From Candidatus Omnitrophota bacterium (GTDB lineage Bacteria > Omnitrophota > Gorgyraeia > JAHIPI01), in NCBI GenBank assembly GCA_016783745.1, contig JADHVZ010000005.1, positions 1,178 to 65,177 of the forward strand: 64,000 bases of DNA, written 5' to 3'. The notes under the pieces are model-generated. The model was not told the origin of the DNA. It searched no databases and saw only the letters and a program-made list of their open reading frames with translations. Positions 32,335 to 53,173 of this stretch are shown here, one piece after another; position 1 is the stretch's first letter, and every line of letters starts with the position of its first letter. The position numbers were made by a program, and so were the translations under genes.

Positions 32335-32802
32335 TTACTTAGGCAACAGCTCTTCAAACAGCAATTTCAGCTCTTCGCGCCTCTTCGTCAGTATATCACT
32401 GAGCGGAGTGTTCATGGCGCACTTGCCCGGTTGAATACCCAGCAAGTATACCTCAGCCTTTGTCTCCGCCTTCAGAAAATCGAAAAATAATGCCAGGGAC
32501 GCGTTATGCGTAGATAAGCCGTATAAGGGAATATCCTTCTTCCTCAGCAACTTCATGTCCCCTATATTAGCGCCAAGATCAGCGGCGTCTACCATAAGTA
32601 CCGTGTCGGGCTTAGAGTTTCTGATCGCCTTAATGTGATTTTCAGGCGTAGGCCCTGCGTTCAACACCTCAGCTGAGGTCTTACCCTTCAGATCATCAAT
32701 AAGCCCGGGACCAAAGCCATCATCCCCCATCATTGTATTGCCGACTCCGACAATAGTGACCCTTCCCCTTAATATATCCTGTAATTCCATCCTAATATCC
32801 AT
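32335..32802 (-). CDS. hycI: hydrogenase maturation endopeptidase (HycI/HyaD family)
   Basis: TIVGVGNTMMGDDGFGPGLIDDL is the signature of the hydrogenase maturation protease family. Confidence 0.75.
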   Translation of the reverse strand: MDIRMELQDILRGRVTIVGVGNTMMGDDGFGPGLIDDLKGKTSAEVLNAGPTPENHIKAIRNSKPDTVLMVDAADLGANIGDMKLLRKKDIPLYGLSTHNASLALFFDFLKAETKAEVYLLGIQPGKCAMNTPLSDILTKRREELKLLFEELLPK

Positions 32803-36243: not shown

Positions 36244-36244
36244 T

Positions 36245-36583
36245 CTATCCGTGCAACTTTCTTATTTTTGTAATATCGAACGTCCCGTATTTATCGTAAA
36301 TCCTGATAGCTATAGCGACCATCATGGCCGTGACCGCCAATCCGATAACGATCGCGGTAAGGACCAGGGCCTGAGGAAGCGGATCCACCATATTGAATAT
36401 GTTTTCACTCGGCGTGAATATAGGCGAACGGCCTTCGGCGCGGTAACCCACAAGCGCAAAAAACAGATGGACGGCATACTCAGCGATTATGATACCGATA
36501 ATGATCTTGATGAGATTCCTCTTCCTTAATATACAAAAGATGCCGATCGAGAAAAGGACCAGGCATAAAAAATAGAGAAGCAT
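36245..36583 (-). CDS. mrpC: MrpC/NuoK-like subunit
   Basis: 112 aa, 3 TM. NuoK-like. Confidence 0.55.
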   Translation of the reverse strand: MLLYFLCLVLFSIGIFCILRKRNLIKIIIGIIIAEYAVHLFFALVGYRAEGRSPIFTPSENIFNMVDPLPQALVLTAIVIGLAVTAMMVAIAIRIYDKYGTFDITKIRKLHG

Positions 36584-36586
36584 AAA

Positions 36587-37069
36587 CTAATTTCCTTTCT
36601 TACCGTCCACTGTAAACTTCAGCATTACCAGTATGACAAATATACTGAATAATCCGGCGCCCACTTTTAAACTGATCGCTATGTTGCAAAGCGGGATTAT
36701 TCCGGCGCTGAATAACTTAAAAGGCTCGCCTTTATCAGCAAAGAAGTTCAAGAAGAAAGACCCGCCCGTGAAACCGATGACCGCTATTAATAAGAAAAGC
36801 AAGGCGCCTAAACTTTCAAAAAAAGACGCCGCCCGCATAGACAGCTTCTTCAATGCCACATCTTTGCCGAACGCCAGCATTATATGTATAAACGAAAGCG
36901 CCACAATAACTCCGCCGGCAAAACCGCCGCCGGGCGAGACGTGGCCATGAGACAGTATATATATACCGTATAGCAGGATCAGGCCGACCGTGAGGCGTGT
37001 TATGGTCTTTACGATAATGGTCATGCCTTTATTAGGATCCGGGACAGCGGCTTCTTTTTTATTATTCAT
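36587..37069 (-). CDS. mrpB: MrpB (MnhB-domain) subunit
   Basis: 160 aa, 4 TM. Position in the Mrp block. Confidence 0.5.
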   Translation of the reverse strand: MNNKKEAAVPDPNKGMTIIVKTITRLTVGLILLYGIYILSHGHVSPGGGFAGGVIVALSFIHIMLAFGKDVALKKLSMRAASFFESLGALLFLLIAVIGFTGGSFFLNFFADKGEPFKLFSAGIIPLCNIAISLKVGAGLFSIFVILVMLKFTVDGKKGN

Positions 37070-37604
37070 CTTCCTCTACTTCCTCCCCCACCTTCTTGCG
37101 GCCGACTCTCCTCATAATAGCGATAACGCCTATTACCGCCGTAAAAAGTATCGTTGCCTCACCCAGCGTATCATATGCCCTGAAGTCCAATATGACAGCC
37201 GCTACCAGATTAGACGCTCCCGTTTTTGACAATCCCGTTTCAAGGTAGATATTAGCGACCTTCATGATAGGCTGCCCGAAAACAGGAAGATCCTTTAAGC
37301 AGTAATATCCGATCCCTAAAAAAGTAACCGTGAATACGGCTACTACGAGTGTATTAAAAAACCACCTGCCGGAGGTAGAAAACGGCAGGTCTTTTTTGAG
37401 CGTCGCCCTTATTAATATTATCAAGCATAATATTTCGACGACCAGCTGCGTTATCGCGAGATCGGGCGCCTTCAATACTAAAAACGCTATGGAGAGAGCC
37501 AGGCCGACGGCGCCCACAGCTATAACAGCCGAAATAAGGTCTTGCATCTGAACGGCCGCTATTGCGCCTATGATCATGATTATCAAAAGAATATACAGGA
37601 TCAT
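37062..37604 (-). CDS. Mrp-module membrane subunit (MrpB N-terminal / DUF4040-like); start re-set to the ATG overlapping the mrpA stop (ATGA)
   Basis: Track ORF starts at 37655 inside mrpA. The internal ATG at 37604 overlaps the mrpA TGA, a classic translational coupling, giving MILYILLIIMIIG... Confidence 0.45.
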   Translation of the reverse strand: MILYILLIIMIIGAIAAVQMQDLISAVIAVGAVGLALSIAFLVLKAPDLAITQLVVEILCLIILIRATLKKDLPFSTSGRWFFNTLVVAVFTVTFLGIGYYCLKDLPVFGQPIMKVANIYLETGLSKTGASNLVAAVILDFRAYDTLGEATILFTAVIGVIAIMRRVGRKKVGEEVEEDE

Positions 37605-39412
37605 CCCATGCACCTCAACATAAATATGAATAAGACCAGCATCCCTATGAGACACCAGGTAATATACGTAGACAAAACACCGTTATGGAGATATTGTAAC
37701 ACCCGCGTAACGCTAAAGATAAATCTACGGCAAAGCTGATAGATGTCGAAAAGCCCTTCCCCTGCCATCCCATATATTTTTCCGAATATGGGGATATCCG
37801 CGATCGTATTATAGAATTCCGTCCCCGTCGGCCTTTCTTCAACCGGCAACACCTCTCCGCCGATAAAAGGTTCGGCTGTCCTCGCGGTCTTTATAGTTCC
37901 CAGTAAATATATAGCGGCTCCCACAGCCAATCCGGCAATAATAAATATGGTCGCCGATCCGGGCTGCCATAATCCGGCATAAGAAATATCTCCGAAGACA
38001 GCGGGTATTATAAAATATTTCAGCGGTATACCAAAAGCGAATACCCCGAATACTATACAAAGAACGGCAAGTATTCCCATCGGTACCCACATCGATGCCG
38101 GGACTTCCTTGACCTGCCTGTCACTACCCGCGCCTTGCTGTCCCAAAAACACGGCATGCAGCAATTTCATGAAGCTCGCGAGAGTCAGCGCGCTTCCGAA
38201 CATAGCGGTGGCAAGCCATATGATCCAGAGCCTGCCGCCGTCTTTACCCAGGTCTATTATACTCTGATATATCATCCATTTTGAGACGAAACCGTTAAAA
38301 GGAGGTATGCCCGATATCGCGAGCGAACTTATCAGGCAGCATAAAAATGTGATCGGCATAAAGTGCGCGATTCCGCCAAGCTTGTCAAGCTGTGTCGTAC
38401 CTGTTTTTTTCTCAACGGCACCGGCTGATAAAAATAACGCGTTTTTGTAAATAGCGTTGTTCAGCATATGAAATAACCCGCCGGCAATACCGATCGGATT
38501 AGCCGTTCCGATCCCTACCACCATATAGCCTACCTGACTTACCGCGTGATATGACAAGAGACGCTTCATATCATGCTGAACAAGGGCCATCATAACACCC
38601 GCGATAATAGTGAAAGACCCGGTTATCAATAATAACAGGCTCAATCCGCTATTCGGCACTACCACGAATATCCCACAAACAATTCTTGCCAGAAAATATA
38701 TACCTAAAAGTTTATCCAGGCTCGCCGGCAAAAATGCCATCACGGGAACCGGCGCGGCCTTTGCCGAATCAGGGATCCATGTGTGCAGAGGCATGACGCC
38801 TCCCTTAGCGAACGCGCCGACTAAGAGACAAACGAAAGCAATGACCATAGAACCATTGTTAAGCAATAAGGCGTATTCATCCATTCTAAACGACCCGGTG
38901 GCCCTCCACAGGATCGCGACCCCGACCAGCATAATGGCATCGGAACCGCCTACTATTATGAATGTCTTTTTTGCCGCATCCTTAGCCCCATCTCCCCCGA
39001 TCCCTATCAATAGATACAGGGTTATCCCCAGGAATCCCCAGAATACCATAAAGAGGAGGATGTTATTTGCCAGGACTGCCCCTATAGAACCGGCTATAGT
39101 CGCGAGAATATAGGCATAATAATTTCCTATATTTATTCTATCCTTCATGAAACCGGCAGAATAAAGGATCGCCAGAACGCCGAAAAAGGCTATAAAGATA
39201 AGAACAAATGCCGAGAGGCTATCTACCCTTAACAGGCCTGGGATCCCGTAGATACTCCATATGACAGGATTCATCCTGAAGATCTCTATGGAGCCGAATA
39301 GTACGAAAGCAGAAACTACCAGGGCAAAGACAGGTTTGATTTTTCGCGGTAGAAACGCGCAGATCACGCTCGCCATGAAGGTGACTGATATAAGAGTCAC
39401 AGGGTTATTCAA
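37601..39412 (-). CDS. mrpA: MrpA/NuoL-like antiporter subunit
   Basis: 603 aa, about 16 TM. HTWIPDSAKAAPVPVMAFLPASL motif of the NuoL/MrpA family. Confidence 0.75.
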   Translation of the reverse strand: MNNPVTLISVTFMASVICAFLPRKIKPVFALVVSAFVLFGSIEIFRMNPVIWSIYGIPGLLRVDSLSAFVLIFIAFFGVLAILYSAGFMKDRINIGNYYAYILATIAGSIGAVLANNILLFMVFWGFLGITLYLLIGIGGDGAKDAAKKTFIIVGGSDAIMLVGVAILWRATGSFRMDEYALLLNNGSMVIAFVCLLVGAFAKGGVMPLHTWIPDSAKAAPVPVMAFLPASLDKLLGIYFLARIVCGIFVVVPNSGLSLLLLITGSFTIIAGVMMALVQHDMKRLLSYHAVSQVGYMVVGIGTANPIGIAGGLFHMLNNAIYKNALFLSAGAVEKKTGTTQLDKLGGIAHFMPITFLCCLISSLAISGIPPFNGFVSKWMIYQSIIDLGKDGGRLWIIWLATAMFGSALTLASFMKLLHAVFLGQQGAGSDRQVKEVPASMWVPMGILAVLCIVFGVFAFGIPLKYFIIPAVFGDISYAGLWQPGSATIFIIAGLAVGAAIYLLGTIKTARTAEPFIGGEVLPVEERPTGTEFYNTIADIPIFGKIYGMAGEGLFDIYQLCRRFIFSVTRVLQYLHNGVLSTYITWCLIGMLVLFIFMLRCMG

Positions 39413-40637
39413 TTTTCCGTCCCATTTTTTTAGTCAATTCACTATCCGAAAAACCCATGGATTTGCCCAGATCCCACGTCTTATGCTGCGAGAGATGGAT
39501 CAGCCTCTCGGCTCCGCATACAATATTGTTTTTCTTATGATCGATCGCCGTTAACCTCTCCGTGCAGCAATAGCACGGATCGATCGCCGCCAATATTATG
39601 GTAGCGTCCGAGATGGTCTCGCCCACGACCGTTTTTTTAAAGCTCGGGAAATTCATGAACGTAGGGGCGCGCACTTTATGCCTGACCGGACGGTTTGTCC
39701 CGTCGCTTCTCACTATATGTATGACCTCGCCCCTCGGCGCTTCATGATGTCCTATGCCGTCACCCGGGGATATATGCTTCGGCTTACAATCAATGGGGCC
39801 GGCGGGCAGTTTATCAAAACACTGATTTAAGATCTTAATGGACTCGAACATCTCAAGGATCCTTATCACGGCCTTAGCAAACACATCACCTTCATACTGC
39901 AGGATCACTTTCCAGTCGACCCTGTCGTAAGCGGCATATGGCTCATCTCGCCTTACATCTATATCATATCCGGAAGCCCTCGCTGTCGGCCCGAGAACGC
40001 TATAATCGACCGCGTCCTCATGCTTCAGCACTCCCACTCCCTTTAGCCGCGCCGCTAAAACCGGATCATCCAGCACCGCGCCCTTGAACATCTCCACAGC
40101 GGGCAGGAGTTCGTCATTTATGACTTTTTTGTAATACGGTATCTCGCTATTATCTATATCCCTTCTTACTCCGCCGGGCTTCATCATAGCATAGTTATTT
40201 CTATTGCCTGAAATAGCTTCAAGCACGTCCAGAATAGGCTCTCTATAGCGCCATGCCCACATGAATACCGTATTGTATCCAAGGAAATGGCCGGCCAGTC
40301 CGAGCCACAGCATATGCGAATGCAGTCTTTCAAGTTCGCCTGTTATTGTCCGGATATAAAGCGCTCTTTCCGGGACTTCCATCTCATCGATATCCTCAAC
40401 GGCGTTTACGAACGCGATAGGATGGCTTGTCGAGCAAATACCGCAGATCCTCTCGACCAGGTAAGCTGACTGGTCAAAACTTTTGGATTCGGAGAGCTTC
40501 TCGATGCCTCTGTGATTCCAGCCGATCCTGACATCTATATCGACGACCCTCTCACCGTCTACGACGAGCTTATAAAATTCCGGCTCTTCCTGCAGCGGAT
40601 GATACGGGCCGATGGGTATGGTGACTTTGTGGCTCAT
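39405..40637 (-). CDS. [NiFe] hydrogenase group 4 large subunit (NuoD/HycE/EchE-like)
   Basis: N-terminal RICGICSTSH and C-terminal DPCYCCTER Ni-Fe ligating cysteine motifs. Confidence 0.85.
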   Translation of the reverse strand: MSHKVTIPIGPYHPLQEEPEFYKLVVDGERVVDIDVRIGWNHRGIEKLSESKSFDQSAYLVERICGICSTSHPIAFVNAVEDIDEMEVPERALYIRTITGELERLHSHMLWLGLAGHFLGYNTVFMWAWRYREPILDVLEAISGNRNNYAMMKPGGVRRDIDNSEIPYYKKVINDELLPAVEMFKGAVLDDPVLAARLKGVGVLKHEDAVDYSVLGPTARASGYDIDVRRDEPYAAYDRVDWKVILQYEGDVFAKAVIRILEMFESIKILNQCFDKLPAGPIDCKPKHISPGDGIGHHEAPRGEVIHIVRSDGTNRPVRHKVRAPTFMNFPSFKKTVVGETISDATIILAAIDPCYCCTERLTAIDHKKNNIVCGAERLIHLSQHKTWDLGKSMGFSDSELTKKMGRKIE

Positions 40638-40800
40638 TTGTCCTTACTCCTATAACGTCATTGCGAGGAGCCTTGCCGCCAAAGGCGGCAGGGCGACGAA
40701 GCAATCTCAATCTGGGATTGCTTCGGCACTTCGTGCCTCGCAACAAGTTCGACCATACAACTTATGTTCACTTTCGTTCCATAAGTTGTGGTCTCACTTG
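40638..40800. mobile_element. 163-bp highly structured insertion flanked by 13-bp direct repeats CTTTGTGGCTCAT (MITE-like element or structured RNA)
   Basis: 13-mer at 40625-40637 (large-subunit start codon region) is duplicated at 40801-40813, overlapping the NuoC-like stop. Insert contains three inverted-repeat pairs (ttgcgagg/cctcgcaa, gaagcaatc/gattgcttc, caacttatg/cataagttg) and gccgcc-aaa-ggcggc. Confidence 0.5.
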
Positions 40801-40809
40801 CTTTGTGGC

Positions 40810-41283
40810 TCATCGGCTCGACTCCTTCTGAGAATTCAAACTAAACTCTTTTCGCATCGGGTATTTATCCTTCGGCCAATCATCAGGCAGGAGAAGCGGC
40901 TTCATGTCAGGATGGCCCTTAAATTCGACCCCGAAAAGCTCATGCATCTCCCTCTCTATCCATCCCACGGCATTCGCTACCGGCACCAGAGACTCGACCG
41001 CGCAATCATCCTTCGGCGCGTATATCCTCAATGTGATGATCAGTCCGAGCCTATCCACATTAAAGTGATACATGATCTCTATATTTTCCGGATGGTCCAC
41101 CGCGGTCGCGGTATTAAACCTCGCCTCAAGGTCTTTGAACACATAACTCGCGAATTCGACTATATCTTTTCTGTCAAGGTCTATATATACCCGCTTGGAT
41201 GACTTCTCCTGAAAGCGTTTTATCTTGCCGCCGAATTTTTTCTTAATACTCGCTATAACCGCGCTTCTATCCATTTTGATCAC
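40810..41283 (-). CDS. NuoC-like (30-kDa) hydrogenase subunit
   Basis: 157 aa. Fold and position match NuoC/HycE-N/EchD. Located between the small- and large-subunit genes. Confidence 0.65.
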   Translation of the reverse strand: MIKMDRSAVIASIKKKFGGKIKRFQEKSSKRVYIDLDRKDIVEFASYVFKDLEARFNTATAVDHPENIEIMYHFNVDRLGLIITLRIYAPKDDCAVESLVPVANAVGWIEREMHELFGVEFKGHPDMKPLLLPDDWPKDKYPMRKEFSLNSQKESSR

Positions 41284-41705
41284 TTGCCTTTCGCCTTGAC
41301 CAGCTTTACGATGCCGTCTATTATCGCCTCAGGCTTCGGCGGACAGCCCGGTATATAGGCGTCGACCGGGAGGACCTTATCCAGCGGCTCCGCCTCATCT
41401 ACCATATAGGTATTGCTGAACATGCCCCGCCCTGCCGTGCAGGTCCCCACCGCGATTACGAAGCCGGGTTTCGGCATCTGGTCATACATCTTTTTTACTA
41501 TCGGCTTGCATTGCTTATTTAGAATCCCCGTGACTAAAAGTACGTCGGCGTGCCTTATAGACCCGACCAGCAATATCCCGAAACGCTCCACATCGTGCCT
41601 TGGCGTCAATAGATCCAGTATTTCTATGTCACAGTTGTTGCAGCTTGCCGTAGACAGATGGAACACCCAGAGTGACTTTGTTAATGCCTTGATCTTGACT
41701 GACAT
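41280..41705 (-). CDS. [NiFe] hydrogenase group 4 small subunit (NuoB-like)
   Basis: CNNC...GTCTAG...IPGCPP cysteines of the proximal [4Fe-4S] cluster. Confidence 0.8.
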   Translation of the reverse strand: MSVKIKALTKSLWVFHLSTASCNNCDIEILDLLTPRHDVERFGILLVGSIRHADVLLVTGILNKQCKPIVKKMYDQMPKPGFVIAVGTCTAGRGMFSNTYMVDEAEPLDKVLPVDAYIPGCPPKPEAIIDGIVKLVKAKGK

Positions 41706-41717
41706 GATTTACCTTTA

Positions 41718-42653
41718 CTAAAGTCCAAATAACGCTAGCACTACTCCGATCACTGCCAGAACCGTGACGCGGCCCCAGAAGAACCTGAGCGCCTGATCGA
41801 TCCTCAGGCGGGGATTCGTATTTCTTATCAATACTATCACTACCAGCAAAGCTACATATTTCAATATGCCCCAGAGAAGCGATAGCCCGCTTACGCTGAT
41901 GCCGCCCATGAAGGCTACTATCAAGAACATGGGCATTGTAAACAATAACATGGCTTTTGTCAATTTAAAGACGGCCAGAGGCCCGCCTGAGTATTCGATT
42001 ATAGGCCCGCCCATGAGCTCTGTCTCCGCCTCAGAAACATCAAAAGGAACAAGCCCTAATTTAGCCTGCATACATAATATTGCTACTATCAGCGCTATCG
42101 AACCAGAAAAACTTCCCACTACTATACCGTTGGCAGCCTGATAATTCAATATTCCGCCTATTGTCAGTATCCCGCCCGATTTTATTATAGGTACGGCAAG
42201 GGCTAATATAAAAGGAAGCTCATACGATAATACCAATTTCATCTCACGCGAAGCGCCGAGACTCGCGTAGGAATTGTTTGACGCGAAACCGCCCAATATC
42301 AAACTTAATGCCGGAAGGGTCAGAAGATATAAGACGACTATAATATCGCCTATAAAACCGCCTGCCGGATCAAGATTCGATAGCCATAATATCATCGAGA
42401 CCAATGTTACTCCTGCCAGGCCGATAAGCGGAGCGGTAAAAAAGAGCAATTGTGAAGAACCGGCCGGCATAAGCGTCTCTTTGCCGAGCAGCTTGACTAT
42501 ATCGGCTAACGGTTGATACCACGGCGGGCCTACCCTGTATTGTACGCGCGCAGTGACCTTCCTGTCGATCCAGCTCGCCAGCAGCCCTATCGCGGCTGTG
42601 AACAAAAAACCCGGAAATATTAAAAATTGTAATACAGAGACGGCCATCTTCAT
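41718..42653 (-). CDS. NuoH/HycD/EchB-like membrane subunit
   Basis: 311 aa, 8 TM. NuoH-like. Confidence 0.7.
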   Translation of the reverse strand: MKMAVSVLQFLIFPGFLFTAAIGLLASWIDRKVTARVQYRVGPPWYQPLADIVKLLGKETLMPAGSSQLLFFTAPLIGLAGVTLVSMILWLSNLDPAGGFIGDIIVVLYLLTLPALSLILGGFASNNSYASLGASREMKLVLSYELPFILALAVPIIKSGGILTIGGILNYQAANGIVVGSFSGSIALIVAILCMQAKLGLVPFDVSEAETELMGGPIIEYSGGPLAVFKLTKAMLLFTMPMFLIVAFMGGISVSGLSLLWGILKYVALLVVIVLIRNTNPRLRIDQALRFFWGRVTVLAVIGVVLALFGL

Positions 42654-43141
42654 TTAGACTTAACTCCGTTCCTCTCCCAACGCTCCGCCTTTACCAGTAT
42701 GTTATCACTAACGGCGTATATCTTCTTAGCTTCGTCTTCTTTAAAATCACCGTACATTAATACGCCTTCCGCGGAGCCCTTTATGCACGCGGGCTCTTCT
42801 CCGTCCATAAGTTTATCCAGGCATAGGTCGCAACGAGGCATAAGATACGTCATCATCTCTGTGTAGATCACTCCGAAAGGACAGGCGTGGCTGCAGGATT
42901 TACAGCTTGTGCACCTCATATTGTATCTCTCTAATATCTTATCATCCCTTTTCTCAAGGGCCTCGTTCGGACAGGAAGTGACACAGGCCTCAAGTTCGCA
43001 TTTTCTGCAGACAATAGCGTATGTCGCCAACTCCAGCAAGGACCTGACGCCTTTATTGTCCGAATGATAAAAATAACTGCAGCCGAGATCCTTATCCTTA
43101 TACTCAGTATATAGATCCAAGTCGATCAGTAATTTTTTCAT
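42650..43141 (-). CDS. HycB/HydN-like multi-[4Fe-4S] electron-transfer protein
   Basis: CRKCELEACVTSCP, CTSCKSCSHACP and CDLCLDK...PACIKG cysteine clusters. Confidence 0.6.
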   Translation of the reverse strand: MKKLLIDLDLYTEYKDKDLGCSYFYHSDNKGVRSLLELATYAIVCRKCELEACVTSCPNEALEKRDDKILERYNMRCTSCKSCSHACPFGVIYTEMMTYLMPRCDLCLDKLMDGEEPACIKGSAEGVLMYGDFKEDEAKKIYAVSDNILVKAERWERNGVKSK

Positions 43142-43142
43142 C

Positions 43143-43964
43143 TTATTCCCAGATCGTATGATATTCTTTTATCTTATCGTAAGTAAAGACCGGGCCGTCC
43201 TTGCAGGCATAGTACGGGCCGATCCTGCAGTGCCCGCATTTTCCTATTCCGCATGACATATTCTTTTCCATCGATAGAAACAGGTCTTTATCTTTATACC
43301 CCAGTTCCACCAGCTTAAAAGTGGCGAATTTCATCATGATCGGAGGCCCGCACACTATAGCCGCGCTGTTACTTATGTCTACTCCGATATCTTTTCTTAA
43401 GAGCGTTGTGATGAGACCCACATTGCCTTTCCAGTCTTCACCGCTTTTGTCTACGGTTATTTCTATATCCAGATCCTTATTTCCGGCCCACTCCTTCAGC
43501 TGATCTTTATAAACAAGGTCCTCGGGAGAACGCGCTCCGTACTTTACCATGATCCTTTTATATTTACCCGCCTCGTCAAGTAAGGCCAGGATAAGGCTTC
43601 TAAGAGGAGCAAGCCCTACACCGCCGCCCACTATTAAGACCTCTTTACCTTCGAAATCCTTCAGAGGATATCCCGTCCCGTAGGGCCCTCTTACGCCTAC
43701 GACCGCGCCTTTCCCTATTTCATGCAGCCGCGATGTCACTCGCCCCACGCTCATTATCGTTATTTCCATGCTATCTTCGATCTTCGGATTAGATGAGGGC
43801 GTAAATGGCGCCTCTCCCACGCCGGGCACAGTCAATTCTACAAATTGCCCCGTCTTAAAAGAGACGGGCTTTTCCGGCTTGACCGCGAATGTCTTGATAG
43901 TAGGCGTCTCTTCGATGATATCTGTTATTTCAGCTTTTACAGGACAATACGGATTTTCTACCAT
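43143..43964 (-). CDS. FAD/NAD(P)H-binding oxidoreductase subunit with C-terminal [2Fe-2S] (HydG/AsrB/PyrK-like)
   Basis: FNR-like fold (GQFVELTVPGVGEAPFT, VGGGVGLAPL) plus C-terminal CGIGKCGHCRIGPYYAC. Confidence 0.65.
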   Translation of the reverse strand: MVENPYCPVKAEITDIIEETPTIKTFAVKPEKPVSFKTGQFVELTVPGVGEAPFTPSSNPKIEDSMEITIMSVGRVTSRLHEIGKGAVVGVRGPYGTGYPLKDFEGKEVLIVGGGVGLAPLRSLILALLDEAGKYKRIMVKYGARSPEDLVYKDQLKEWAGNKDLDIEITVDKSGEDWKGNVGLITTLLRKDIGVDISNSAAIVCGPPIMMKFATFKLVELGYKDKDLFLSMEKNMSCGIGKCGHCRIGPYYACKDGPVFTYDKIKEYHTIWE

Positions 43965-45019
43965 TATGCCTTAGCTTTCTTCTTTTCCGCTACCAGATCC
44001 TTCAAGACCCTTCGTATATCGATCTTAGCGGGACAACCGGAAATACATCTGCCGCAACCGGTACACGCGTACAGCCCGTTGACCTCGGGAAAATAGTCGA
44101 ACTTCTTTTCGAACCGGTTTCTCAGCCTCTCCCAGAGATGCTGTCTGGGATTTGCGTTGCCTGCGACACGGGCAAACCGCTTATACATACATGAATCCCA
44201 GATCTTATAACGCGTTTCTCCGCCAGCCTTTTTCTGAATATCCGCGAGATAAAAACAATGACAGGTAGGGCAAGCCACGTTACAACCGCCGCATTCCACG
44301 CAATTCTCTGCCTCTCGCTCCCAGATCTCCGATTCCAGGCTTTTCTTAATAACATCTTTATATTCCGTCTGGCGCGGTATTTCAGACTTTTTAATGCCTT
44401 CCTCTACCTGAGCGCCGGATATACTTCTTATGTGGTCTCTTTCTTCTATATGTTTTTCGCCGGAGTCAGCAAGGATATCACTATTTTCATTCAGCAGTTT
44501 TTTCCCCTTCCAGGTAACGGACTCCAGTAAATATCCGTCACGTAATTCAGAGATCAGAACATCATGGTTCTTTTGAGGAAAATGCTCATGGCCTAAAGCG
44601 TGGCAGAAGCACGTATCTATGGCATGAGTGCAATCCGCGGCGATGATCAGGTTCTGCTCGCGTTTACTGACATAAAATGGGTCTTTAAAGTCCCCTTCCG
44701 AAAATACGCTATCTAAAATATTTAAGCCGGCGAGATCGCAGTTCTTCACGCCCAATACACACAATGGCTTTCCTCCGGCTTTAGGATCAGCCGGCCTGCC
44801 TAAGCCGTCAATCACCCGTTCGCGGGCGAAAAAGAAAAAATTCTTAAGGGGTTCGAACGGCCTCACACCGCCTATCAGGGGATCTTTAAGGCCATCCGAA
44901 TATTTGACAATATGAGGACTGGCGCCTTTACCCTTACGAAGGTAATAAAGGGAGTATTCTTTAGAAATGCCGTAAGCGAACATTTCCAGGTTTTCTCTTT
45001 TTAGAAACACTTGCTCCAC
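43964..45019 (-). CDS. Fe-S subunit related to sulfhydrogenase beta / anaerobic sulfite reductase A (HydB/AsrA-like)
   Basis: 351 aa with CVECGGCNVACPTC and CTGCGRCISGCP motifs. Translationally coupled to the HydG-like gene. Confidence 0.55.
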   Translation of the reverse strand: MEQVFLKRENLEMFAYGISKEYSLYYLRKGKGASPHIVKYSDGLKDPLIGGVRPFEPLKNFFFFARERVIDGLGRPADPKAGGKPLCVLGVKNCDLAGLNILDSVFSEGDFKDPFYVSKREQNLIIAADCTHAIDTCFCHALGHEHFPQKNHDVLISELRDGYLLESVTWKGKKLLNENSDILADSGEKHIEERDHIRSISGAQVEEGIKKSEIPRQTEYKDVIKKSLESEIWEREAENCVECGGCNVACPTCHCFYLADIQKKAGGETRYKIWDSCMYKRFARVAGNANPRQHLWERLRNRFEKKFDYFPEVNGLYACTGCGRCISGCPAKIDIRRVLKDLVAEKKKAKA

Positions 45020-45025
45020 TTTGAT

Positions 45026-45661
45026 TCAGCCTTTCGCGGAAGTCAGGATAAATGAGAAATTCTCAAGCTCGTTTGACAGATCTATGTTCCTTACCGTTAC
45101 TCCTTCGTCCACTTTCAAGATCACAGGCGAGAAATTCAGGATGCATATTATTCCATACCGGGTGACCTCCTCCGCTACATCTTGAGCGCTGTCAACCGGA
45201 ACGGTTATTATAGCGATTTTGATCGACCTGTCCTTCTCGATGTCATTTATCTGTCTTACATCTTTTACAGTGACTTCTCCATAACACTTGCCGATCTTCT
45301 TCTGATCGATGTCAAAGGCTTCCTTTATTATAAAACCCTGGTTTTTAAAACCAGGGTATCTGAGTAATGCCGAACCTATATTCCCGGCACCGATCAAAAC
45401 TATATGCCATATATTGTCTTTTCCAAGCAGATCCCTGAGAATATTCTTTAACTTGAGGATCTCGTAGCCCGATCCTGATGTCCCGAACTGGCCGAAGTAA
45501 GAAAGATCTTTTCTCACCTGCGCGTCAGTAAGTCCGGTCAACTCACCTAGTTCCACGGAAGAGACCTTGTCTCCTCCCTCGTCTTCCAGGCGGCTTATCT
45601 CTCTTAGATATAGCGACAATCTTGACGCCACGCTTTTCGGTATTTTCTTTTTCTCTTGCAT
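45026..45661 (-). CDS. rex: redox-sensing transcriptional repressor Rex (start re-set to the internal Met)
   Basis: MQEKKKIPKSVASRLSLYLREI... is the winged-helix N-terminus. IVLIGAGNIGSALL is the Rossmann NADH site. Track ORF (to 45817) carries a 52-aa non-Rex N-terminal extension. Confidence 0.75.
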   Translation of the reverse strand: MQEKKKIPKSVASRLSLYLREISRLEDEGGDKVSSVELGELTGLTDAQVRKDLSYFGQFGTSGSGYEILKLKNILRDLLGKDNIWHIVLIGAGNIGSALLRYPGFKNQGFIIKEAFDIDQKKIGKCYGEVTVKDVRQINDIEKDRSIKIAIITVPVDSAQDVAEEVTRYGIICILNFSPVILKVDEGVTVRNIDLSNELENFSFILTSAKG

Positions 45662-45771: not shown

Positions 45772-46179
45772 TTAAAACTTTACCAGCATGGCGCGCGGCG
45801 GACAGGTCTTCACGCACAGTTCACAAGCTATGCACTTATTAGAATCGAAGTTCACCTTCATGGTGTCTTTTTCCAGGCTAAGCGCTCCGGTCGGGCATAT
45901 TGTTATACAGGCTGTGCAATGCGTACATTTATTGTCATCGCGCGAGATATCCTTACTCAAAGCCTGTATTGTAACGCCTAATTCGTTAAGGTATTTCACG
46001 CCGTTATCATAGTCTTCCTTCTTGCCGCTAAGCTCCAGGACCAAAAGCCCTTCTTCTTCAGGAGTAACTCTTGCCTGAAGGATGTTAAACATAAGATTAA
46101 AATCTTTCACTAATTTAAAAACCACAGGCTTATCAAGTAGATTATGCGGAAACGTAAGGACTATTCTTTTGGATATCAT
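45772..46179 (-). CDS. NIL-domain protein fused to 2x[4Fe-4S] ferredoxin
   Basis: N-terminal ~75 aa NIL-like domain. C-terminal CTHCTACITICP and CIACELCVKTCP. Confidence 0.55.
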   Translation of the reverse strand: MISKRIVLTFPHNLLDKPVVFKLVKDFNLMFNILQARVTPEEEGLLVLELSGKKEDYDNGVKYLNELGVTIQALSKDISRDDNKCTHCTACITICPTGALSLEKDTMKVNFDSNKCIACELCVKTCPPRAMLVKF

Positions 46180-46194: not shown

Positions 46195-46911
46195 TTACAG
46201 TAACTCAACCTCTCCCCAACTCGCCAATTTGCTTCCGATTATGACCAGCGCGCCTGTCACACCTTCTATCGATCTTGCGTAATCTATAGCTGCTTGCAGG
46301 TCATCGGCGTTTTTAACCAGGTTTCCGGCCTGAGTCGCCACACAATCGGCAAGCACGGCATCACGCGCTATTATGGTGGCCGCATCCGCCTTTCCGAAAC
46401 TCTTAGAATGCCCCACTGTTCCGCTGGAGGTGCAAATGCCAAGCGGCACCCCGGATGGAGCTATCTTAAGATTTATTTTGCCTGAAAGCGGGGAATCGCC
46501 GGCGTATATACTAAGCCTGCGCTCGGTATCAGATTTAATAAATATATCTCCCCCGTTTTCTATTAAGACCTGCGAACATTGATCCAGAAGATCCATTCCG
46601 GTATATTGGGCTATTGCGCCGGCCACCCCAGCCATAGGGCCGACACCGGCAATAGCGGATTTATCTATCATATCCCTGACTATTTCCGGAGCGCTGCCAT
46701 CGGCTTCTATCGGCTTCAGAGAATCCTTAAAAAATCTATTCGCCTCGATATAGTCAAGTATCTGCTTCCGATACTCATAAACAGCCTTTTCCGCTTCATT
46801 TTTTAGCGGTTTATCGCAGAGCATCGAAAGATCGGTCTCGAAAACCTTGACCTCGAAACTTATCAGATCTTCGCTTTTTACCCAGTTTCTGTAGAATCTA
46901 TGTTGATGCAT
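46195..46911 (-). CDS. UPF0280/ApbE-like family protein
   Basis: 238 aa with a GVGPMAGVAGAIA motif. Family assignment is from memory only. Confidence 0.35.
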   Translation of the reverse strand: MHQHRFYRNWVKSEDLISFEVKVFETDLSMLCDKPLKNEAEKAVYEYRKQILDYIEANRFFKDSLKPIEADGSAPEIVRDMIDKSAIAGVGPMAGVAGAIAQYTGMDLLDQCSQVLIENGGDIFIKSDTERRLSIYAGDSPLSGKINLKIAPSGVPLGICTSSGTVGHSKSFGKADAATIIARDAVLADCVATQAGNLVKNADDLQAAIDYARSIEGVTGALVIIGSKLASWGEVELL

Positions 46912-46924
46912 TTTATTGTTTATT

Positions 46925-47048
46925 ATTCGTTAATCGTCTATCGTTAATCGCGTTTCGTTCGATTACCTTTGTTCGGTTCTCGGTTTTCGGTTTACGGTTT
47001 TCGGGAAAAGAATCCGAGAACCGAACACCGAGAACCGTAAACCGCACA
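46925..47048. repeat. heptad-repeat imperfect palindrome element, copy 2
   Basis: ...cgttaatcgtctatcgttaatcg...ttcggttctcggttttcggtttacggttttcggg-aaaagaa-tccgagaaccgaacaccgagaaccgtaaaccg. Same orientation as copy 1. Confidence 0.85.
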
Positions 47049-47088
47049 TATAATAAACGAGTACCCAAAGGCCGTACTACCAACTAAA

Positions 47089-48096
47089 TCAACAAATCCT
47101 TGGAAGCGCTTCCTTGGAGAGCATATCGGCAATCCTCTCACCGCCTACCCTCGTTCTTACGATCACCCTTCCCGCGTAGTCGCTTGTTACCTCGCCGATG
47201 ATCCTCGCCCGCCTTCCCAATCTGTGCGACCTCATCGCCGCTACGGCCCTACCGGCCTCCTTCTCAGGCAGGATCATCACCACCTTGCCCTCGTTACCTA
47301 TATATAAAGGATCCAGCCCCAATAATTCACAGGCGGCCTTGGTCGATTCGTTAAGCGGGATATTCTCCTCAAAGAGCCTTATGCCAAACGGCATACCCGA
47401 GGCGATCTCATTCATCGTAGTCGCCAGGCCACCGCGCGTCGGGTCACGCATGAATTTTACATTACTACATTTTTTCAGTACCGTCAAGATTAATCGATGA
47501 AGCGAGGCACAATCGCTTTTTACTCCGCCTTTAAAACCCAATTCCTCGCGGGCAAGCAAAACAGATATTCCGTGGTCCGCTATGGTCCCGTTTATCACTA
47601 TCTTATCCCCCGCCTTGATCCTGTCCGTAGAAATAGGTTTCTTGTACCTGACTATCCCTATACCGCTTGTATTTATGAATATCTTGTCGGCGTTTCCCCT
47701 CTCAACCACTTTAGTATCACCGGTTATTATTAGAACTCCGGCCGCTTTTGCCTCTTTAGCCATTGAATCTATTATCCTTGAAAGCAATGCCTTATCCAGC
47801 CCTTCCTCGATAATAAGTGAGCACGATATGTAAAGCGGGACGGCGCCCGATACCGCAAGGTCGTTCACTGTGCCGCAGACGGATAACTTTCCTATATCAC
47901 CACCCTCAAAGATAACCGGATCTACCACGAAGGAATCAGTGGTAAACGCCAAACGCCCGGCCTTTTTCAATTCAAAGACAGCGGCATCGGACAGGTTCCT
48001 CAAAATAGTGTTTCCGTATTTTTTTAATATGACATTTTTAATGAGGTCATGCGTTAGTTTACCGCCGCTTCCGTGCGCAAGCAGTATTTTCGACAT
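47089..48096 (-). CDS. hypE: hydrogenase maturation factor HypE (start re-set)
   Basis: MSKILLAHGSGGKLTHDLI... AIR-synthase-like. Track ORF carries a 42-aa N-terminal over-extension. Confidence 0.85.
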   Translation of the reverse strand: MSKILLAHGSGGKLTHDLIKNVILKKYGNTILRNLSDAAVFELKKAGRLAFTTDSFVVDPVIFEGGDIGKLSVCGTVNDLAVSGAVPLYISCSLIIEEGLDKALLSRIIDSMAKEAKAAGVLIITGDTKVVERGNADKIFINTSGIGIVRYKKPISTDRIKAGDKIVINGTIADHGISVLLAREELGFKGGVKSDCASLHRLILTVLKKCSNVKFMRDPTRGGLATTMNEIASGMPFGIRLFEENIPLNESTKAACELLGLDPLYIGNEGKVVMILPEKEAGRAVAAMRSHRLGRRARIIGEVTSDYAGRVIVRTRVGGERIADMLSKEALPRIC

Positions 48097-48113: not shown

Positions 48114-49211
48114 TTACCTGCCGGCCCCGTACTTGTAATGTATGCTGCAGCTGCCCTCGCTCGAGACCATACAAGGCCCTTTGGGGCCTTCCGGAGTGCA
48201 CGCCTTGGCAAAGTGCCTGCATTCCTCAGGCGAATTCTTGCCTTTTAGTATTTCCGCGCAAAGACAGTATCTTTGGCCTGTTGCCCGGCTCACCCTTTTT
48301 ATCCTAAAGTGCCTTTCCGCGTCAAGATCCCCGAATTCACGCCTGAGCTTCAGGCCGCTCCGGGGAATAGTGCCCAGCCCTCTCCAGTCAGCGTCAGAAA
48401 CAGTAAATACCTTATCAAGTATGCGCTGGGCCCGCGTATTCCCTCTTTTTTTTACAACCCTGTTATACTGGATCTCTATCCTGGCCTCATCGGCCTTTAA
48501 CTGACGTATCAGCATTAACACACCCTGCATCATGTCCAGGGGTTCAAACCCGGATATAACACCCGGTATCCGCGCCTTCCTTAGAAAGCCGTACGCATCC
48601 GCCCCGATGATCGTGCTGACATGAGCGGGTAACATAAAACCGTCTATCCTGGCGTCTTTATCTTTCAACAGGGCCTTCATCGCGGGAGGTATAAGTTTAT
48701 GCGCGGAATATATAAAAAAATTCTTTATTTTTTTATTTTTCGCTTCCAGCGCCGCTAAGGCAACAGTGGGAGACGTAGTCTCAAAACCTACCGCCAAAAA
48801 TATGACTTTTTTTGACGGGTTTTGTACGGCGATATTCAACGCATCAAGAGTGGAATAAACTATTCTTATATCGCGCCCCTCAGACCGTTCTTCATATAAA
48901 GAAGATGATCCGCCCGGTACCTTTAACATATCGCCGAAAGTGACGATTATAACATCCTTGGATCTCGCGAGTAATATAGCGTTGTCTATGTAAGGGGTAT
49001 CCGTGACGCAGACCGGGCAGCCGGGCCCCGATATAAGGCGGACGTTTTCCGGCAGCAGGCTCTTCAGGCCAAACCTGAAGAACGTATTTGTATGAGTTCC
49101 GCAGACCTCCATGAACTTATAGCTTCGCTCTTCTCTACCGGCAAAATCCTTTATTTTGCGGGATAGCCTCCCGGCCAGCTTAAGATCCCTGTATTCATCC
49201 ACATATCTCAC
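48114..49211 (-). CDS. hypD: hydrogenase maturation factor HypD
   Basis: GPGCPVCVTD and C-terminal CxxH...C cysteine motifs. Confidence 0.85.
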   Translation of the reverse strand: MRYVDEYRDLKLAGRLSRKIKDFAGREERSYKFMEVCGTHTNTFFRFGLKSLLPENVRLISGPGCPVCVTDTPYIDNAILLARSKDVIIVTFGDMLKVPGGSSSLYEERSEGRDIRIVYSTLDALNIAVQNPSKKVIFLAVGFETTSPTVALAALEAKNKKIKNFFIYSAHKLIPPAMKALLKDKDARIDGFMLPAHVSTIIGADAYGFLRKARIPGVISGFEPLDMMQGVLMLIRQLKADEARIEIQYNRVVKKRGNTRAQRILDKVFTVSDADWRGLGTIPRSGLKLRREFGDLDAERHFRIKRVSRATGQRYCLCAEILKGKNSPEECRHFAKACTPEGPKGPCMVSSEGSCSIHYKYGAGR

Positions 49212-49420
49212 AGGCTTATCTCCTTAATAATATCGAGGGTCTCTTTGGCGCGTTTCTCATCCACTTTCTCGATGGCAAAACCGGCGTGTACTATCACATA
49301 GTCCCCTACGCGGATATCCTTAAGCAGGCCTATACCTATCTGCCGGGCCGTCTTATCGGATCTGACCTCTGCCTTATCCCCTTTTTTACTTACGACCTTC
49401 ATCGGAATACCCAGACACAT
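49208..49420 (-). CDS. hypC: hydrogenase maturation factor HypC
   Basis: MCLGIPMKVV N-terminus. 70 aa. Confidence 0.8.
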   Translation of the reverse strand: MCLGIPMKVVSKKGDKAEVRSDKTARQIGIGLLKDIRVGDYVIVHAGFAIEKVDEKRAKETLDIIKEISL

Positions 49421-49423
49421 CTT

Positions 49424-50560
49424 TTATTCTCCCTTTGAGGCGGCAATAACAGCCTGGCCGATCGGCAGGCCGCTGTCAGCGCATGATGTCTTAGAATGTG
49501 TGTATACGGAAAAATGAGCTCTCTCAAGCCTCACTCTGGCTTCATACGATAATATCTTATTCTGAAATACCCCGCCGCTAAGCACAACATATTTCAGCTT
49601 CGTCTTATCGCGCAATTTCAACGCGGTGTCTTTTATGGCTTCAGCGACTGTATTGTGAAATTTACGGGAAATCAAGCCCGGACGCTTTTTATTATTAAGA
49701 TCGGATATTATCATTTTTATCATCGGTGAAAAATCTAATATATGCTCCTTACCGCGCTTTTCTATCTTAAAGCCGTATATTCCCCCAACGGCGCTTACAG
49801 CTATTTTTTCAAGTTCAATAGCGGCTTCGCCTTCAAATGATATGCGGTCTCTTATGCCGATCAGCGATGATACCGCGTCAAAAAGCCTGCCGGCGCTTGA
49901 CGTAAGCGGTGAATTAAGCCCCTTATCTATGATCTTGAGAAGAAGGGAACGCCTTGCCTTTCCCATCCTTCTTAAAACACCGGAGCTCAGATTGCCGATG
50001 CCTCTGCCGTATGCCTTGTAAATATATGAAAGCGCCATTCTCATCGGCTCAAGCACAGCCTTATCGCCTCCGGGCATGGGCACATAGGCCAGATGGGCCT
50101 TCCGCTCGAATCCGCCGTAATCAGCTATCATAAACTCCCCGCCCCATATGTTTCCGTCTAAGCCGTATCCCGTACCGTCAAATGCCACTCCTATGACCTT
50201 ATTTTGTAGCCCGTTCTCCGCCATGCAGGCCGCTATATGGGCATGGTGGTGCTGGACACCCGCAAGGCCTTTGCTTTTTCTTTTTATTTTTTCGAATATC
50301 TCCCCGGCATATTTTGTCGACATATATTCCGGGTGAAGGTCATGCGCTATTATACCGCGCTCAAAGCTTTTCTTCTTCGATAAAATCGCCTTTTTATAAC
50401 TATCGAATTCCGCGGGGTCTTTCAAGTCGCTAAAAATTCGGCTTACGGAAACGCGGTCACCGGACAGTACGGCGAAACCGCTCTTTGACTCGGATCCCAC
50501 CGCTAATACCGGCGAGCTGAAGGAAAGTGGAAGCTTGATATCCCTGTTTGATCTATCCAT
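49424..50560 (-). CDS. hypF: carbamoyltransferase HypF, C-terminal Kae1/YgjD-like domain only
   Basis: LPLSFSSPVLAVGSESKSGFAVLSGDRVSVSRIFSDL plus GVQHHHAHIAA and AFDGTGYGLDGNIWGGEF match the HypF C-terminal domain. No acylphosphatase, Zn-finger or YrdC-like domains are present. Confidence 0.7.
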   Translation of the reverse strand: MDRSNRDIKLPLSFSSPVLAVGSESKSGFAVLSGDRVSVSRIFSDLKDPAEFDSYKKAILSKKKSFERGIIAHDLHPEYMSTKYAGEIFEKIKRKSKGLAGVQHHHAHIAACMAENGLQNKVIGVAFDGTGYGLDGNIWGGEFMIADYGGFERKAHLAYVPMPGGDKAVLEPMRMALSYIYKAYGRGIGNLSSGVLRRMGKARRSLLLKIIDKGLNSPLTSSAGRLFDAVSSLIGIRDRISFEGEAAIELEKIAVSAVGGIYGFKIEKRGKEHILDFSPMIKMIISDLNNKKRPGLISRKFHNTVAEAIKDTALKLRDKTKLKYVVLSGGVFQNKILSYEARVRLERAHFSVYTHSKTSCADSGLPIGQAVIAASKGE

Positions 50561-50565
50561 AATAT

Positions 50566-50600
50566 GAAAAATAAATTTACCCCGCTAAGGGCGGGGTAAA
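50566..50600 (-). terminator. Rho-independent terminator downstream of pdaD
   Basis: - strand: tttaccccgc-cctta-gcggggtaaa followed by tttattttt. Ends 6 nt before the hypF' ATG. Confidence 0.55.
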
Positions 50601-50635
50601 TGTGTAGTTTAAGACGTTTCCGGACGTCCTTATTG

Positions 50636-51208
50636 CTAAAATATAAATACCGCTACGGCGATCACGGTGGAATAGTCGCCGCTGGCGCTTATAACTGTGG
50701 ATTGTGTGATATTAGTGGCCCTGACCACCTTATCCGTACCTATCATATACTCTTCTTTATTCTCGTCCCAACTCTTATCTTCGTCGAACTCTATACCGAG
50801 AGTAGACGCTAACATAGCCGCGGCTAAATCCTCAGAATATTCGCCCGCCGTCTTTTCAGTCTCCCCGAAAGCGTGGTGTTCGCTGAGATATCCGTGCGCA
50901 TTTGTATCCGCCGGTATTGCCGCTCCGATAGAAGCGGCGATAAGCCTGTGCGGTTCGTCGCTGGAACATCTTGCCATTACGCAAAATGTAAGCATGCCCG
51001 GTATCAATTCCTTAAGTCCCTCATTTCTGGATATAGTCTGGCAGCCGGGCGGCAATATACTTGAGACCTGCACTAGATTGCACTTTTCAATCCCGGCATC
51101 GCGCAGGGCAAGCTCGAACGAACGAAGCTCATATTTATGAGATCCTACACCCTTTGTAAAAAACAGTTTTCGCGGAACAAGCAGCTTGTTCCTGGGAATA
51201 TTCAACAT
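50636..51208 (-). CDS. pdaD: pyruvoyl-dependent arginine decarboxylase
   Basis: Family-typical N-terminus (FFTKGVGSH...) and QVSSILPPG region; the proenzyme self-cleavage Ser is expected near TKGVGSH. Confidence 0.7.
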
Positions 51209-52117: not shown

Positions 52118-53173
52118 TTAACGTATTATCCTTTCCTTCGCAAGCTGCGAAAAATCAACGCAGCGGGTTATCACACTCTCTGCTTCTTCTCCGCTCAACG
52201 TCCCGCATCCGCAACTTGGCGTTATGAGGGAAGAATTTATTATCTTTTTCCTGTCTATGCCTTTCTGCGCCAGGATCCCGATATAGGACTCAAGCCTCTC
52301 TAATATATTTCCGATATCTTCTTTCAGGCTCTCAGGCGCGGTAGGAACCATTCCCCAGGCTATTATACCACCCCTTTCAAAAAATTTAGCAATACTTTCA
52401 CTGTTTTCCGCAAATGACCTGCCGTAGTTATAGGCATCAAAGCTGATCAGATCGATATCAGTAGATAGCGCAAAATCCCAGTCCGCATCGGCGCAACAGT
52501 GTAAACCGGCAAAACACGCCTCGGTGTGGATAGCGGACACCACTGTGTTAATATGTGAGGCGAGGTCTTCCTTCTTTATCTTAGATCTTGAGCCGGCCTG
52601 CTTAAAAAATACCAGCGACGGCTCATCAATAAATATGATGACATCCTGGAATATCTCCTTAAGCCTCGCGGCCTGCCACCTGGCTTTTAACGCTAATGTC
52701 TTGATCGCGGCGCCGCAGAGCTCTTTATCGAAATAAAGCGGTATACCGTTAGAGTCGGTCACGCTAAAGGCAAAGCTGACCGGCCCGGTCACCTGCCCTT
52801 TGAGGTAATCCAGCATCGTTTTATCGAGGTTTTTGAGCCTGTACATATATTCGTAGAAACCGGCCGCATGATCTTCGCTGAAAGAAAAATATTCCAAGTC
52901 ACCCGATTCATAATGCTCATTCAGTTCATCGATCTCCTTCCTGATATCGCGGTTTCTATTTACAGAGACCTTTTTCGCGCTCGCATCCGCCTCGATGCCC
53001 GGCATCCTCTCTACAAACTGAGCCATCATATCCTCAAGAAATGATTTATTGACCAGCTGAGGCCAGAATGGTATTCTTTTAAACTTTGAAAAAATTAAGT
53101 CACATGCCTCCCTTTCGCTATTGTAAGGGATGCTGCCTATTCCGGTCGCCTCAAAATGATTTTTTAATTTCAT
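52118..53173 (-). CDS. cobalamin-independent methionine synthase C-terminal-domain-like (Meth_synt_2/URO-D-fold) protein
   Basis: GIGSIPY N-terminus. GLHCCAD and TPSCGCGTL resemble the Zn-ligand motifs (H.C ... C) of the MetE catalytic domain. Confidence 0.4.
   Translation of the reverse strand: MKLKNHFEATGIGSIPYNSEREACDLIFSKFKRIPFWPQLVNKSFLEDMMAQFVERMPGIEADASAKKVSVNRNRDIRKEIDELNEHYESGDLEYFSFSEDHAAGFYEYMYRLKNLDKTMLDYLKGQVTGPVSFAFSVTDSNGIPLYFDKELCGAAIKTLALKARWQAARLKEIFQDVIIFIDEPSLVFFKQAGSRSKIKKEDLASHINTVVSAIHTEACFAGLHCCADADWDFALSTDIDLISFDAYNYGRSFAENSESIAKFFERGGIIAWGMVPTAPESLKEDIGNILERLESYIGILAQKGIDRKKIINSSLITPSCGCGTLSGEEAESVITRCVDFSQLAKERIIR

Follow-up and report, generated by a model that had tools for sequence, protein, structure and literature searches.

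HypF, as described from Escherichia coli and Caldanaerobacter subterraneus (PDB 3VTH) and represented by the curated model TIGR00143, is a four-domain enzyme in which an acylphosphatase domain splits carbamoyl phosphate, a YrdC-like domain makes carbamoyl-AMP and a Kae1-like domain passes the carbamoyl group on to HypE (PMC6022934; PMC9633730). The labile carbamate and carbamoyl-AMP move via an internal channel of the full-length protein, and the same chemistry is carried out by TobZ-type O-carbamoyltransferases, with both domains fused in reverse order (PMC6022934). A truncated form, HypF1 of Cupriavidus necator (Ralstonia eutropha), has been described as probably requiring carbamoyl adenylate made elsewhere (PMC9100943). 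Here we analyze a HypF gene of the truncated kind, designated hypF', which lies in 64 kb of DNA from a Candidatus Omnitrophota bacterium (assembly GCA_016783745.1, contig JADHVZ010000005.1, positions 1,178 to 65,177 of the forward strand; this whole stretch is referred to below as the window). On the basis of the data presented here, we consider it likely, with a probability of roughly 0.8, that the hypF' product works on its own as a Kae1-like carbamoyltransferase and is the normal HypF of a large Omnitrophota clade, in which the HypF1 architecture was reached independently. HypF1-type truncated proteins are already known; what is new is an independently evolved, lineage-wide case in Omnitrophota.

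Architecture and conservation of hypF'

The gene under study is the following:

49424..50560, minus strand: hypF', a HypF of 378 aa with the Kae1-like domain only, predicted to be a HypF1-type carbamoyltransferase (Pfam, alignment to 3VTH, conserved short clade)

The Pfam content of the hypF' protein is limited to HypF_C (residues 16–115, 1.2e-22) and HypF_C_2 (residues 124–369, 4.7e-81), with no match in the protein to the acylphosphatase (PF00708), zf-HYPF (PF07503) or Sua5/YrdC (PF01300) families. Against TIGR00143, the HypF equivalog model, the protein scores 262.2 bits, under the cut-off of 466.1, and occupies model positions 382–740 of 741. It aligns to residues 395–745 of Caldanaerobacter HypF (761 residues; E 6.7e-74), and the alignment spans the VQHHHAHIA, DGTGYG and C-terminal CxDxGxxxGQA motifs; the metal and nucleotide site formed by HxxxH, DGTGYG and the C-terminal Asp is present. 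The N-terminus, MDRSNRDIKLPLSFSSPVLAVG, is at the domain boundary, with the VLAxG motif at residue 16, and the reading frame cannot be extended upstream because an in-frame TAG is found in the loop of a hairpin that precedes the ATG. An earlier note on this DNA, which had described the 378-aa reading frame as the Kae1-like domain only, beginning at the domain boundary, was therefore correct on both points. Compared with canonical HypF, hypF' shares the Kae1-like domain, all of the conserved residues and the hypC, hypD and hypE partners, but is devoid of the acylphosphatase domain, the two Zn-fingers and the YrdC-like domain. An assignment to TsaD/Kae1, the transferase of N6-threonylcarbamoyladenosine (t6A) synthesis, was ruled out, as both curated cut-offs are missed by far (TIGR03723, 30.6 bits versus 296; TIGR00329, 34 versus 208).

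A homologue search with the hypF' protein yielded 7817 matches, the best 42 or so of which (47–67% identity) are 369–414 aa long and contain the HypF_C and HypF_C_2 domains only, with the exception of two fragments that are shorter but of the same kind; the named proteins among these best matches are from 'Candidatus Omnitrophica', and several are encoded on contigs of 217–551 kb. When the 120 best matches were aligned together with C. necator HypF1, 99 of the 121 sequences were found to begin at most 45 aa ahead of the VLAxG motif, mostly 12–16 aa ahead. In a neighbor-joining tree of the Kae1-like domain, about 85 short sequences (44–67% identity) form one clade that includes no long forms and whose sister groups consist of full-length proteins; named members of the clade carry Omnitrophica or Omnitrophota labels. 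Within a large Omnitrophota clade, HypF normally has this short form. Across short and long forms, 52 positions are conserved, including H104, H105, H108, D128, D135 and D362, and no position in the Kae1-like domain tells the two forms apart. Clade-specific substitutions were considered as a sign of new activity, and none was found in the alignment of this domain.

The hypF' gene is intact and under purifying selection. Compared with the closest syntenic relative (locus L004, 65% identity; related loci are referred to by such numbers), the ratio of nonsynonymous to synonymous substitution rates (dN/dS) is 0.148, a rough value given a dS of 1.75, which is near saturation, but far under 1. An identical hypF' protein and the gene order pdaD-hypF'-hypC-hypD-hypE were read on nine contigs that come separately from ENA, Logan and NCBI, and the same junction is kept in relatives at 65% and at 42–43% identity. 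The comparison with related genomes that the earlier note had proposed as a check thus shows the relatives to share both the short form and the junction. These data bear on two explanations, both raised in that note. The first is a decaying pseudogene, or a redundant remnant of a full-length hypF, a thought that is natural for a gene of half the canonical length without a Shine-Dalgarno (SD) sequence. The evidence refutes it, and we assign it next to no probability: the reading frame is intact, the start position is kept in some 85 sequences whose identity goes down to 44%, residues of the catalytic motifs are invariant, dN/dS is about 0.15, and no remnant of the N-terminal domains was found upstream, where pdaD is only 75 nt away. 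The second, an assembly or binning artefact that took out the 5' half, would be conceivable in a window derived from a metagenome-assembled genome, but the occurrence of the junction on the nine contigs and in relatives at both levels of divergence contradicts it and reduces its probability to practically nil.

The same Kae1-only architecture has a precedent that the earlier note overlooked, C. necator HypF1 (PMC9100943). In strain H16 this protein (394 aa, pHG1 10034–11218) has the Pfam domains HypF_C and HypF_C_2 only, retains HHHAH and is encoded directly ahead of hypC-hypD-hypE; its VLAxG-type motif (APVLACGA) is at residue 13, compared with residue 16 in hypF'. It is, however, only 32–34% identical to the Omnitrophota proteins, whereas it shares 51% identity with the C-terminal domain of HypF2, its own full-length paralogue. 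Since the short Omnitrophota clade also has full-length proteins as its sister groups, the two truncations are independent and hypF' reached the HypF1 architecture on its own, with no common descent from the HypF1 truncation. The two systems differ in other respects as well. C. necator also has the full-length HypF2 and HypF3, whereas no full-length copy was seen in the Omnitrophota loci examined, and it is an aerobe with O2-tolerant hydrogenases, whereas the client here is a group-4 Mrp/Mbh-type enzyme.

The N-terminal half and the carbamoyl donor

The acylphosphatase, Zn-finger and YrdC-like half of HypF was searched for in the window and in Omnitrophota loci of up to 20 kb each (flanks of up to 10 kb), 282 kb altogether, which represent seven subclades. 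Neither tblastn (E ≤ 0.01) with nine, later nineteen, HypF N-terminal regions nor a hidden Markov model (HMM) built from ten such regions (E ≤ 1) gave a match in the window or in the 282 kb of related loci. The ACP, zf-HYPF and Sua5/YrdC Pfam domains are absent within 10 kb of hypF' in the seven subclades, which include two complete hydrogenase-hycI-(hypA)-hypF'CDE clusters (L097, L100). There is also no full-length hypF paralogue in the window or in the flanks of up to 10 kb read in the relatives. Outside the short clade, the Kae1-like part is immediately preceded by a Zn-finger and YrdC-like part in all 141 judgeable loci: 75 of 75 loci of other phyla in a scan of GTDB genomes, and 66 of 66 in a scan of JGI metagenomes, in which the matches listed were distant relatives only. 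Among the GTDB loci listed, those without the N-terminal part are L013, L027 and L073, all labelled Omnitrophota, and L044, which is labelled Planctomycetia, yet is 72% identical to L013 in a neighboring gene.

A phmmer search with a Zn-finger plus YrdC-like query against a representative library of 1.84 billion proteins gave 9222 matches, the best 150 of which are full-length or truncated proteins. The N-terminal-only candidates of about 400 aa that were inspected had to be rejected as free-standing halves and are contig-end fragments, since four of them run into the Kae1-like domain and the other, P0137, is a 'partial' protein of Lucifera butyrica. A separate observation from this search is P0076 (660 aa, on a 30-kb contig), a HypF that starts at the Zn-finger (residue 9) and has no acylphosphatase domain; unless its start is miscalled, HypF N-terminal modules may be lost stepwise in other lineages.

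These searches bear on whether the gene is split, with a separate gene elsewhere in the genome for the acylphosphatase, Zn-finger and YrdC-like half, which would dock on hypF' or hand carbamoyl-AMP over to it. The canonical mechanism requires those three activities (PMC6022934), and what was inspected amounts to 64 kb of this genome and at most 20 kb per relative. We nonetheless regard a split gene as unlikely, since a detached N-terminal half is missing from every hyp neighborhood examined, the two complete clusters included, although separated halves commonly remain neighbors in at least some lineages, and since the N-terminal-only proteins of the representative library are contig-end fragments. 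In addition, C. necator HypF1 reportedly supports maturation without HypF2, a finding attributed to Wolf et al. in 1998 that also counts against a split gene.

The genes with which hypF' would act are located downstream of it on the same strand:

49208..49420, minus strand: hypC (Pfam HupF_HypC)
48114..49211, minus strand: hypD (Pfam HypD, 1.4e-147)
47089..48096, minus strand: hypE, 335 aa, with the acceptor cysteine at the C-terminal end, ...PRIC (Pfam AIRS/AIRS_C, gene call)
39405..40637, minus strand: large subunit of a group-4 [NiFe] hydrogenase, in an Mbh/Mrp-type cluster (Pfam NiFeSe_Hases/Complex1_49kDa)
32335..32790, minus strand: hycI-type maturation endopeptidase (Pfam HycI on the called gene)

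The hydrogenase large subunit has CGIC at residue 65 and DPCYCC at residue 355, so that the Ni-Fe ligands are intact, as well as a C-terminal extension. The predicted client of the Hyp proteins is this group-4 [NiFe] hydrogenase and, because both motifs are retained and HycI is present, the Hyp pathway is, as far as the sequences tell, needed here. The conserved residues of hypF' and its position in the operon argue for the canonical last step: hypF' would bind HypE and move the carbamoyl moiety of carbamoyl-AMP onto the HypE terminal cysteine, HypE would dehydrate the carbamoylated cysteine to thiocyanate, and HypC and HypD would assemble Fe(CN)2CO for the membrane-bound hydrogenase, which is encoded on the same strand some 9 kb further on. 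The hydrolysis of carbamoyl phosphate and the adenylation of carbamate would then have to be supplied by something that is not fused to hypF'. A detached N-terminal half of HypF is most likely not this supplier; a different adenylating enzyme, for instance the TsaC/Sua5 of t6A synthesis, could take the role, as could the Kae1 domain through an activity of its own. In t6A synthesis, TsaC/Sua5 and TsaD/Kae1 are separate proteins, and the acyl-adenylate is handed from one to the other. This system, with the same YrdC-like and Kae1-like chemistry, provides a working model for a Kae1-only HypF and indicates that a hand-over in trans is feasible. The earlier note had held that carbamoyl transfer to HypE needs the YrdC part, which is right insofar as the YrdC-like domain makes carbamoyl-AMP, but the transfer itself is performed by the Kae1-like domain (PMC6022934). 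Taking these considerations together, we see an even chance that Omnitrophota mature [NiFe] hydrogenases with the Kae1-like domain alone, in a genome without the HypF-type acylphosphatase, Zn-finger and YrdC-like module, with an unrelated enzyme such as TsaC/Sua5, or the Kae1 domain acting by itself, as the source of the donor.

Several points weigh against the proposal of a functional stand-alone enzyme. The search for the N-terminal half took in the window and 282 kb of related loci, and a separate half may be located elsewhere. Carbamate and carbamoyl-AMP are labile and are channelled in full-length HypF, so that their delivery in trans is not trivial (PMC6022934). C. necator HypF1 seemed to lack activity in E. 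coli when conditions were anaerobic (PMC9100943), and the analogy with HypF1 may not hold because the hydrogenases here are of the anaerobic type. Finally, a consensus scan called no sigma-70-like promoter on the minus strand ahead of hypF'. Having lost the substrate-making domains, hypF' might also have changed its function, no longer carbamoylating HypE and serving only as a scaffold for it or transferring a different acyl-adenylate. This alternative seems very doubtful given that the position ahead of hypC-hypD (mostly with hypE) is strictly conserved, that there is no clade-specific substitution at any conserved site, and that no other hypF-like gene is present in the window or the related loci examined, though the Ni-Fe ligands of the hydrogenase are intact.

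If maturation by the Kae1-like domain alone is real, nature can do without three of the four HypF domains, and the suggestion that truncated HypF works under aerobic conditions only would be contradicted as well. In the textbook view, the three active sites of HypF are connected by an internal channel; HypF1 hinted that the last domain suffices, but C. necator has full-length copies. A large, anciently truncated clade of anaerobes, in which the N-terminal half is near no hyp cluster examined and the client needs CN ligands, would constitute a natural experiment, and comparative genomics within it could reveal the supplier of carbamoyl-AMP, a question that applies equally to HypF1. There is also a practical side: such proteins are named 'carbamoyltransferase HypF' or 'hypothetical' by annotation pipelines, and hydrogenase maturation may be mistaken for incomplete in metabolic reconstructions.

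The spacer between pdaD and hypF'

The upstream neighbor of hypF' and the elements of the intervening spacer are as follows:

50636..51208, minus strand: pdaD, pyruvoyl-dependent arginine decarboxylase (Pfam PvlArgDC, 4e-59)
50611..50630, minus strand: second, weaker hairpin in the spacer, GGACGUC...GACGUCU (minimum free energy structure; terminator-like scan on the plus strand)
50575..50601, minus strand: terminator-like hairpin of 11 bp with a GC core, ATTTACCCCGC/CCTTA/GCGGGGTAAAT (terminator scan; fold of -17.5 kcal/mol)
50561..50574, minus strand: AT-rich stretch of 14 nt that separates the hairpin from the ATG, TTATTTTTCATATT, with the T-tract inside and without an SD sequence (sequence, SD scan)

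The spacer is 75 nt long and folds with -25.1 kcal/mol (z = -2.97, over 101 nt). The stronger hairpin (50601 to 50575 in the direction of transcription) starts 34 nt past the pdaD stop codon and consists of 11 pairs, 6 of them G-C, and a 5-nt loop; it is followed by the T-tract TTATTTTT, then by CATATT and by the ATG at 50560. The earlier note's description of a terminator hairpin and T-tract that stop 6 nt short of the ATG agrees with the sequence and with the terminator scan. With a GC-rich stem-loop and a T-tract downstream of a stop codon, the element has the form of a predicted intrinsic (Rho-independent) terminator, which would end or stabilize the pdaD message. A 24-nt core of the hairpin, CCCCGCCCTTRGCGGGGTAAATTT, is kept in L004 and L005, where the remaining spacer has diverged; the T-tract is degraded in both (TAAATTTGTCTTG in L004), though the stem is conserved.

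The hairpin occurs as a single copy in the window, and the idea that it is a repeat within the window was rejected on that ground. In L044, a palindrome, CTTTACACCCGCCTTAGGCGGGAGTGTAAAG, is present in two copies of inverse orientation, one between hypF' and the gene for a protein designated X (described below) and the other upstream of X. These copies (2789–2822 and 3902–3936) contain a 31-nt palindrome, CTTTACAC(T)CCCGCCTWAGGCGGG(AG)TGTAAAG, that resembles the window hairpin at 50575–50601. Judging from these copies, the hairpin may belong to a family of intergenic palindromes in Omnitrophota, similar to repetitive extragenic palindromic (REP) elements, rather than being a signal specific to hypF'.

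No SD core is present at positions -18 to -4 of hypF'. The earlier note had reasoned that the terminator leaves no room for an SD sequence or a promoter; the absence of the SD core stands, but the argument drawn from it is weak, because 25 of the 54 called genes here are without an SD core (29 have one), so that hypF' is not special in this respect, and because the hypF' genes of relatives have quite different genes upstream. The consensus scan called no promoter on this strand. TATTTT, 7 nt ahead of the hypF' ATG, is a weak -10-like hexamer with no fitting -35 element, and the TATTTT and TAAATT hexamers in this region are weak matches read by eye. A TATAAT box lies 6 nt ahead of the hypF' ATG in L095 and 12 nt ahead in L073, which suggests short-leader or leaderless hypF' transcripts in these two loci. 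In the window, hypF' would be translated without an SD sequence from the AT-rich leader, either after read-through of the hairpin or from a short or leaderless transcript of its own.

In L073 (9332–9991) and L095 (9483–10168), the spacer between pdaD and hypF' is a non-coding stretch of about 650–690 nt. It harbors long hairpins of high stability (-31 and -24 kcal/mol over 40 nt), is conserved in patches between the two loci and terminates in the TATAAT box just ahead of the hypF' ATG. A search of these two long spacers against Rfam gave spurious miRNA hairpin matches only; they could represent an inserted element or a novel RNA.

Neighboring genes

The neighbors reported in the earlier note, pdaD upstream and hypC, hypD and hypE downstream, were recovered by gene calls and Pfam. 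In the seven subclades inspected, the order is always hypF'-hypC-hypD, mostly then hypE, adjoining a group-4 [NiFe] hydrogenase. The gene upstream of hypF' is pdaD in the window, L004, L095 and L096, and the MetE-like gene X in L013, L027 and L044; an LPG-synthase-like, an RNase T/WYL and an aminotransferase gene occupy this place in L001, L099 and L098, respectively. In L100 and L097, the end of the hydrogenase operon (hycI or hypA) is directly upstream of hypF', with hypA intervening in L097.

Protein X (window 52118..53173, minus strand, 351 aa) belongs to a family of 340–351 aa without a Pfam match that is widespread in Omnitrophota (3122 homologues at E ≤ 1e-5), and its gene is part of a conserved block, M48 peptidase-X-agmatinase-pdaD, often then followed by hypF'. 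Other occurrences are at 7291–8346 in L004, 9007–10038 in L013, 1027–2058 in L027, 2868–3902 in L044, 6834–7853 in L073 and 7001 to about 8050 in L094–L096. X is a divergent TIM barrel of the MetE/UROD type with invariant HCC and PSCGCG motifs (zinc-type HCC...CGC); its AlphaFold model has a pLDDT of 94 and matches MetE (1T7L) in Foldseek with an E-value of 3e-9, and its score against NCBIfam PRK00957, 33 bits, is far under the methionine synthase cut-off of 258.

A conserved neighbor could in principle substitute for the missing half of HypF, the candidates being X and a UPF0280/NIL-ferredoxin gene pair that separates the hyp genes from the hydrogenase operon. X is found upstream of hypF' in eight loci (the window, L004, L013, L027, L044, L073, L095 and L096) and not in about 75 loci with full-length hypF. 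The block M48-X-speB-pdaD nevertheless exists without hyp genes in L094, hypF' exists without X in five loci (L001 and L097–L100), and a MetE/UROD TIM barrel with a zinc-type motif is not an adenylating fold. X as the missing HypF partner was therefore rejected as the principal explanation, and substitution by a conserved neighbor is at best a long shot. Since X and hypF' each occur without the other, their association is best read as shared synteny.

The UPF0280/AbpE_bact gene of this pair (46195–46911, minus strand; NCBIfam PRK04334, 285 bits) and the gene for the NIL-domain 2x[4Fe-4S] ferredoxin (45772–46179, minus strand) are found in the same position in the window, L004, L013, L095 and L096, and gene sizes suggest the same pair in L027 and L073. 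Both families are linked to sulfide-dependent homocysteine synthesis in methanogens.

Some further features of the region may be mentioned. The operon of the group-4 Mrp/Mbh-type hydrogenase extends over 32335–45019, with hycI at its end, and is headed by a gene for a Rex-type redox regulator (Put_DNA-bind_N and CoA_binding) in the region 44744–45535 (14744–15535 in L006). Neither hypA nor hypB is present in the window; hypA follows hypE in L013 and L096 and is ahead of hypF' in L097, and hypB was not seen in any locus examined. In L004, the relative at 65% identity, a gene for a 588-aa TPR-repeat protein (11371–13137) is inserted between hypC and hypD. The spacer between hypE and the UPF0280 gene (window 46912–47088, minus strand) consists of 177 nt of short CGGTT/CCGAA-type repeats and folds as one long imperfect hairpin, with -56.6 kcal/mol over 191 nt (z = -3.4).

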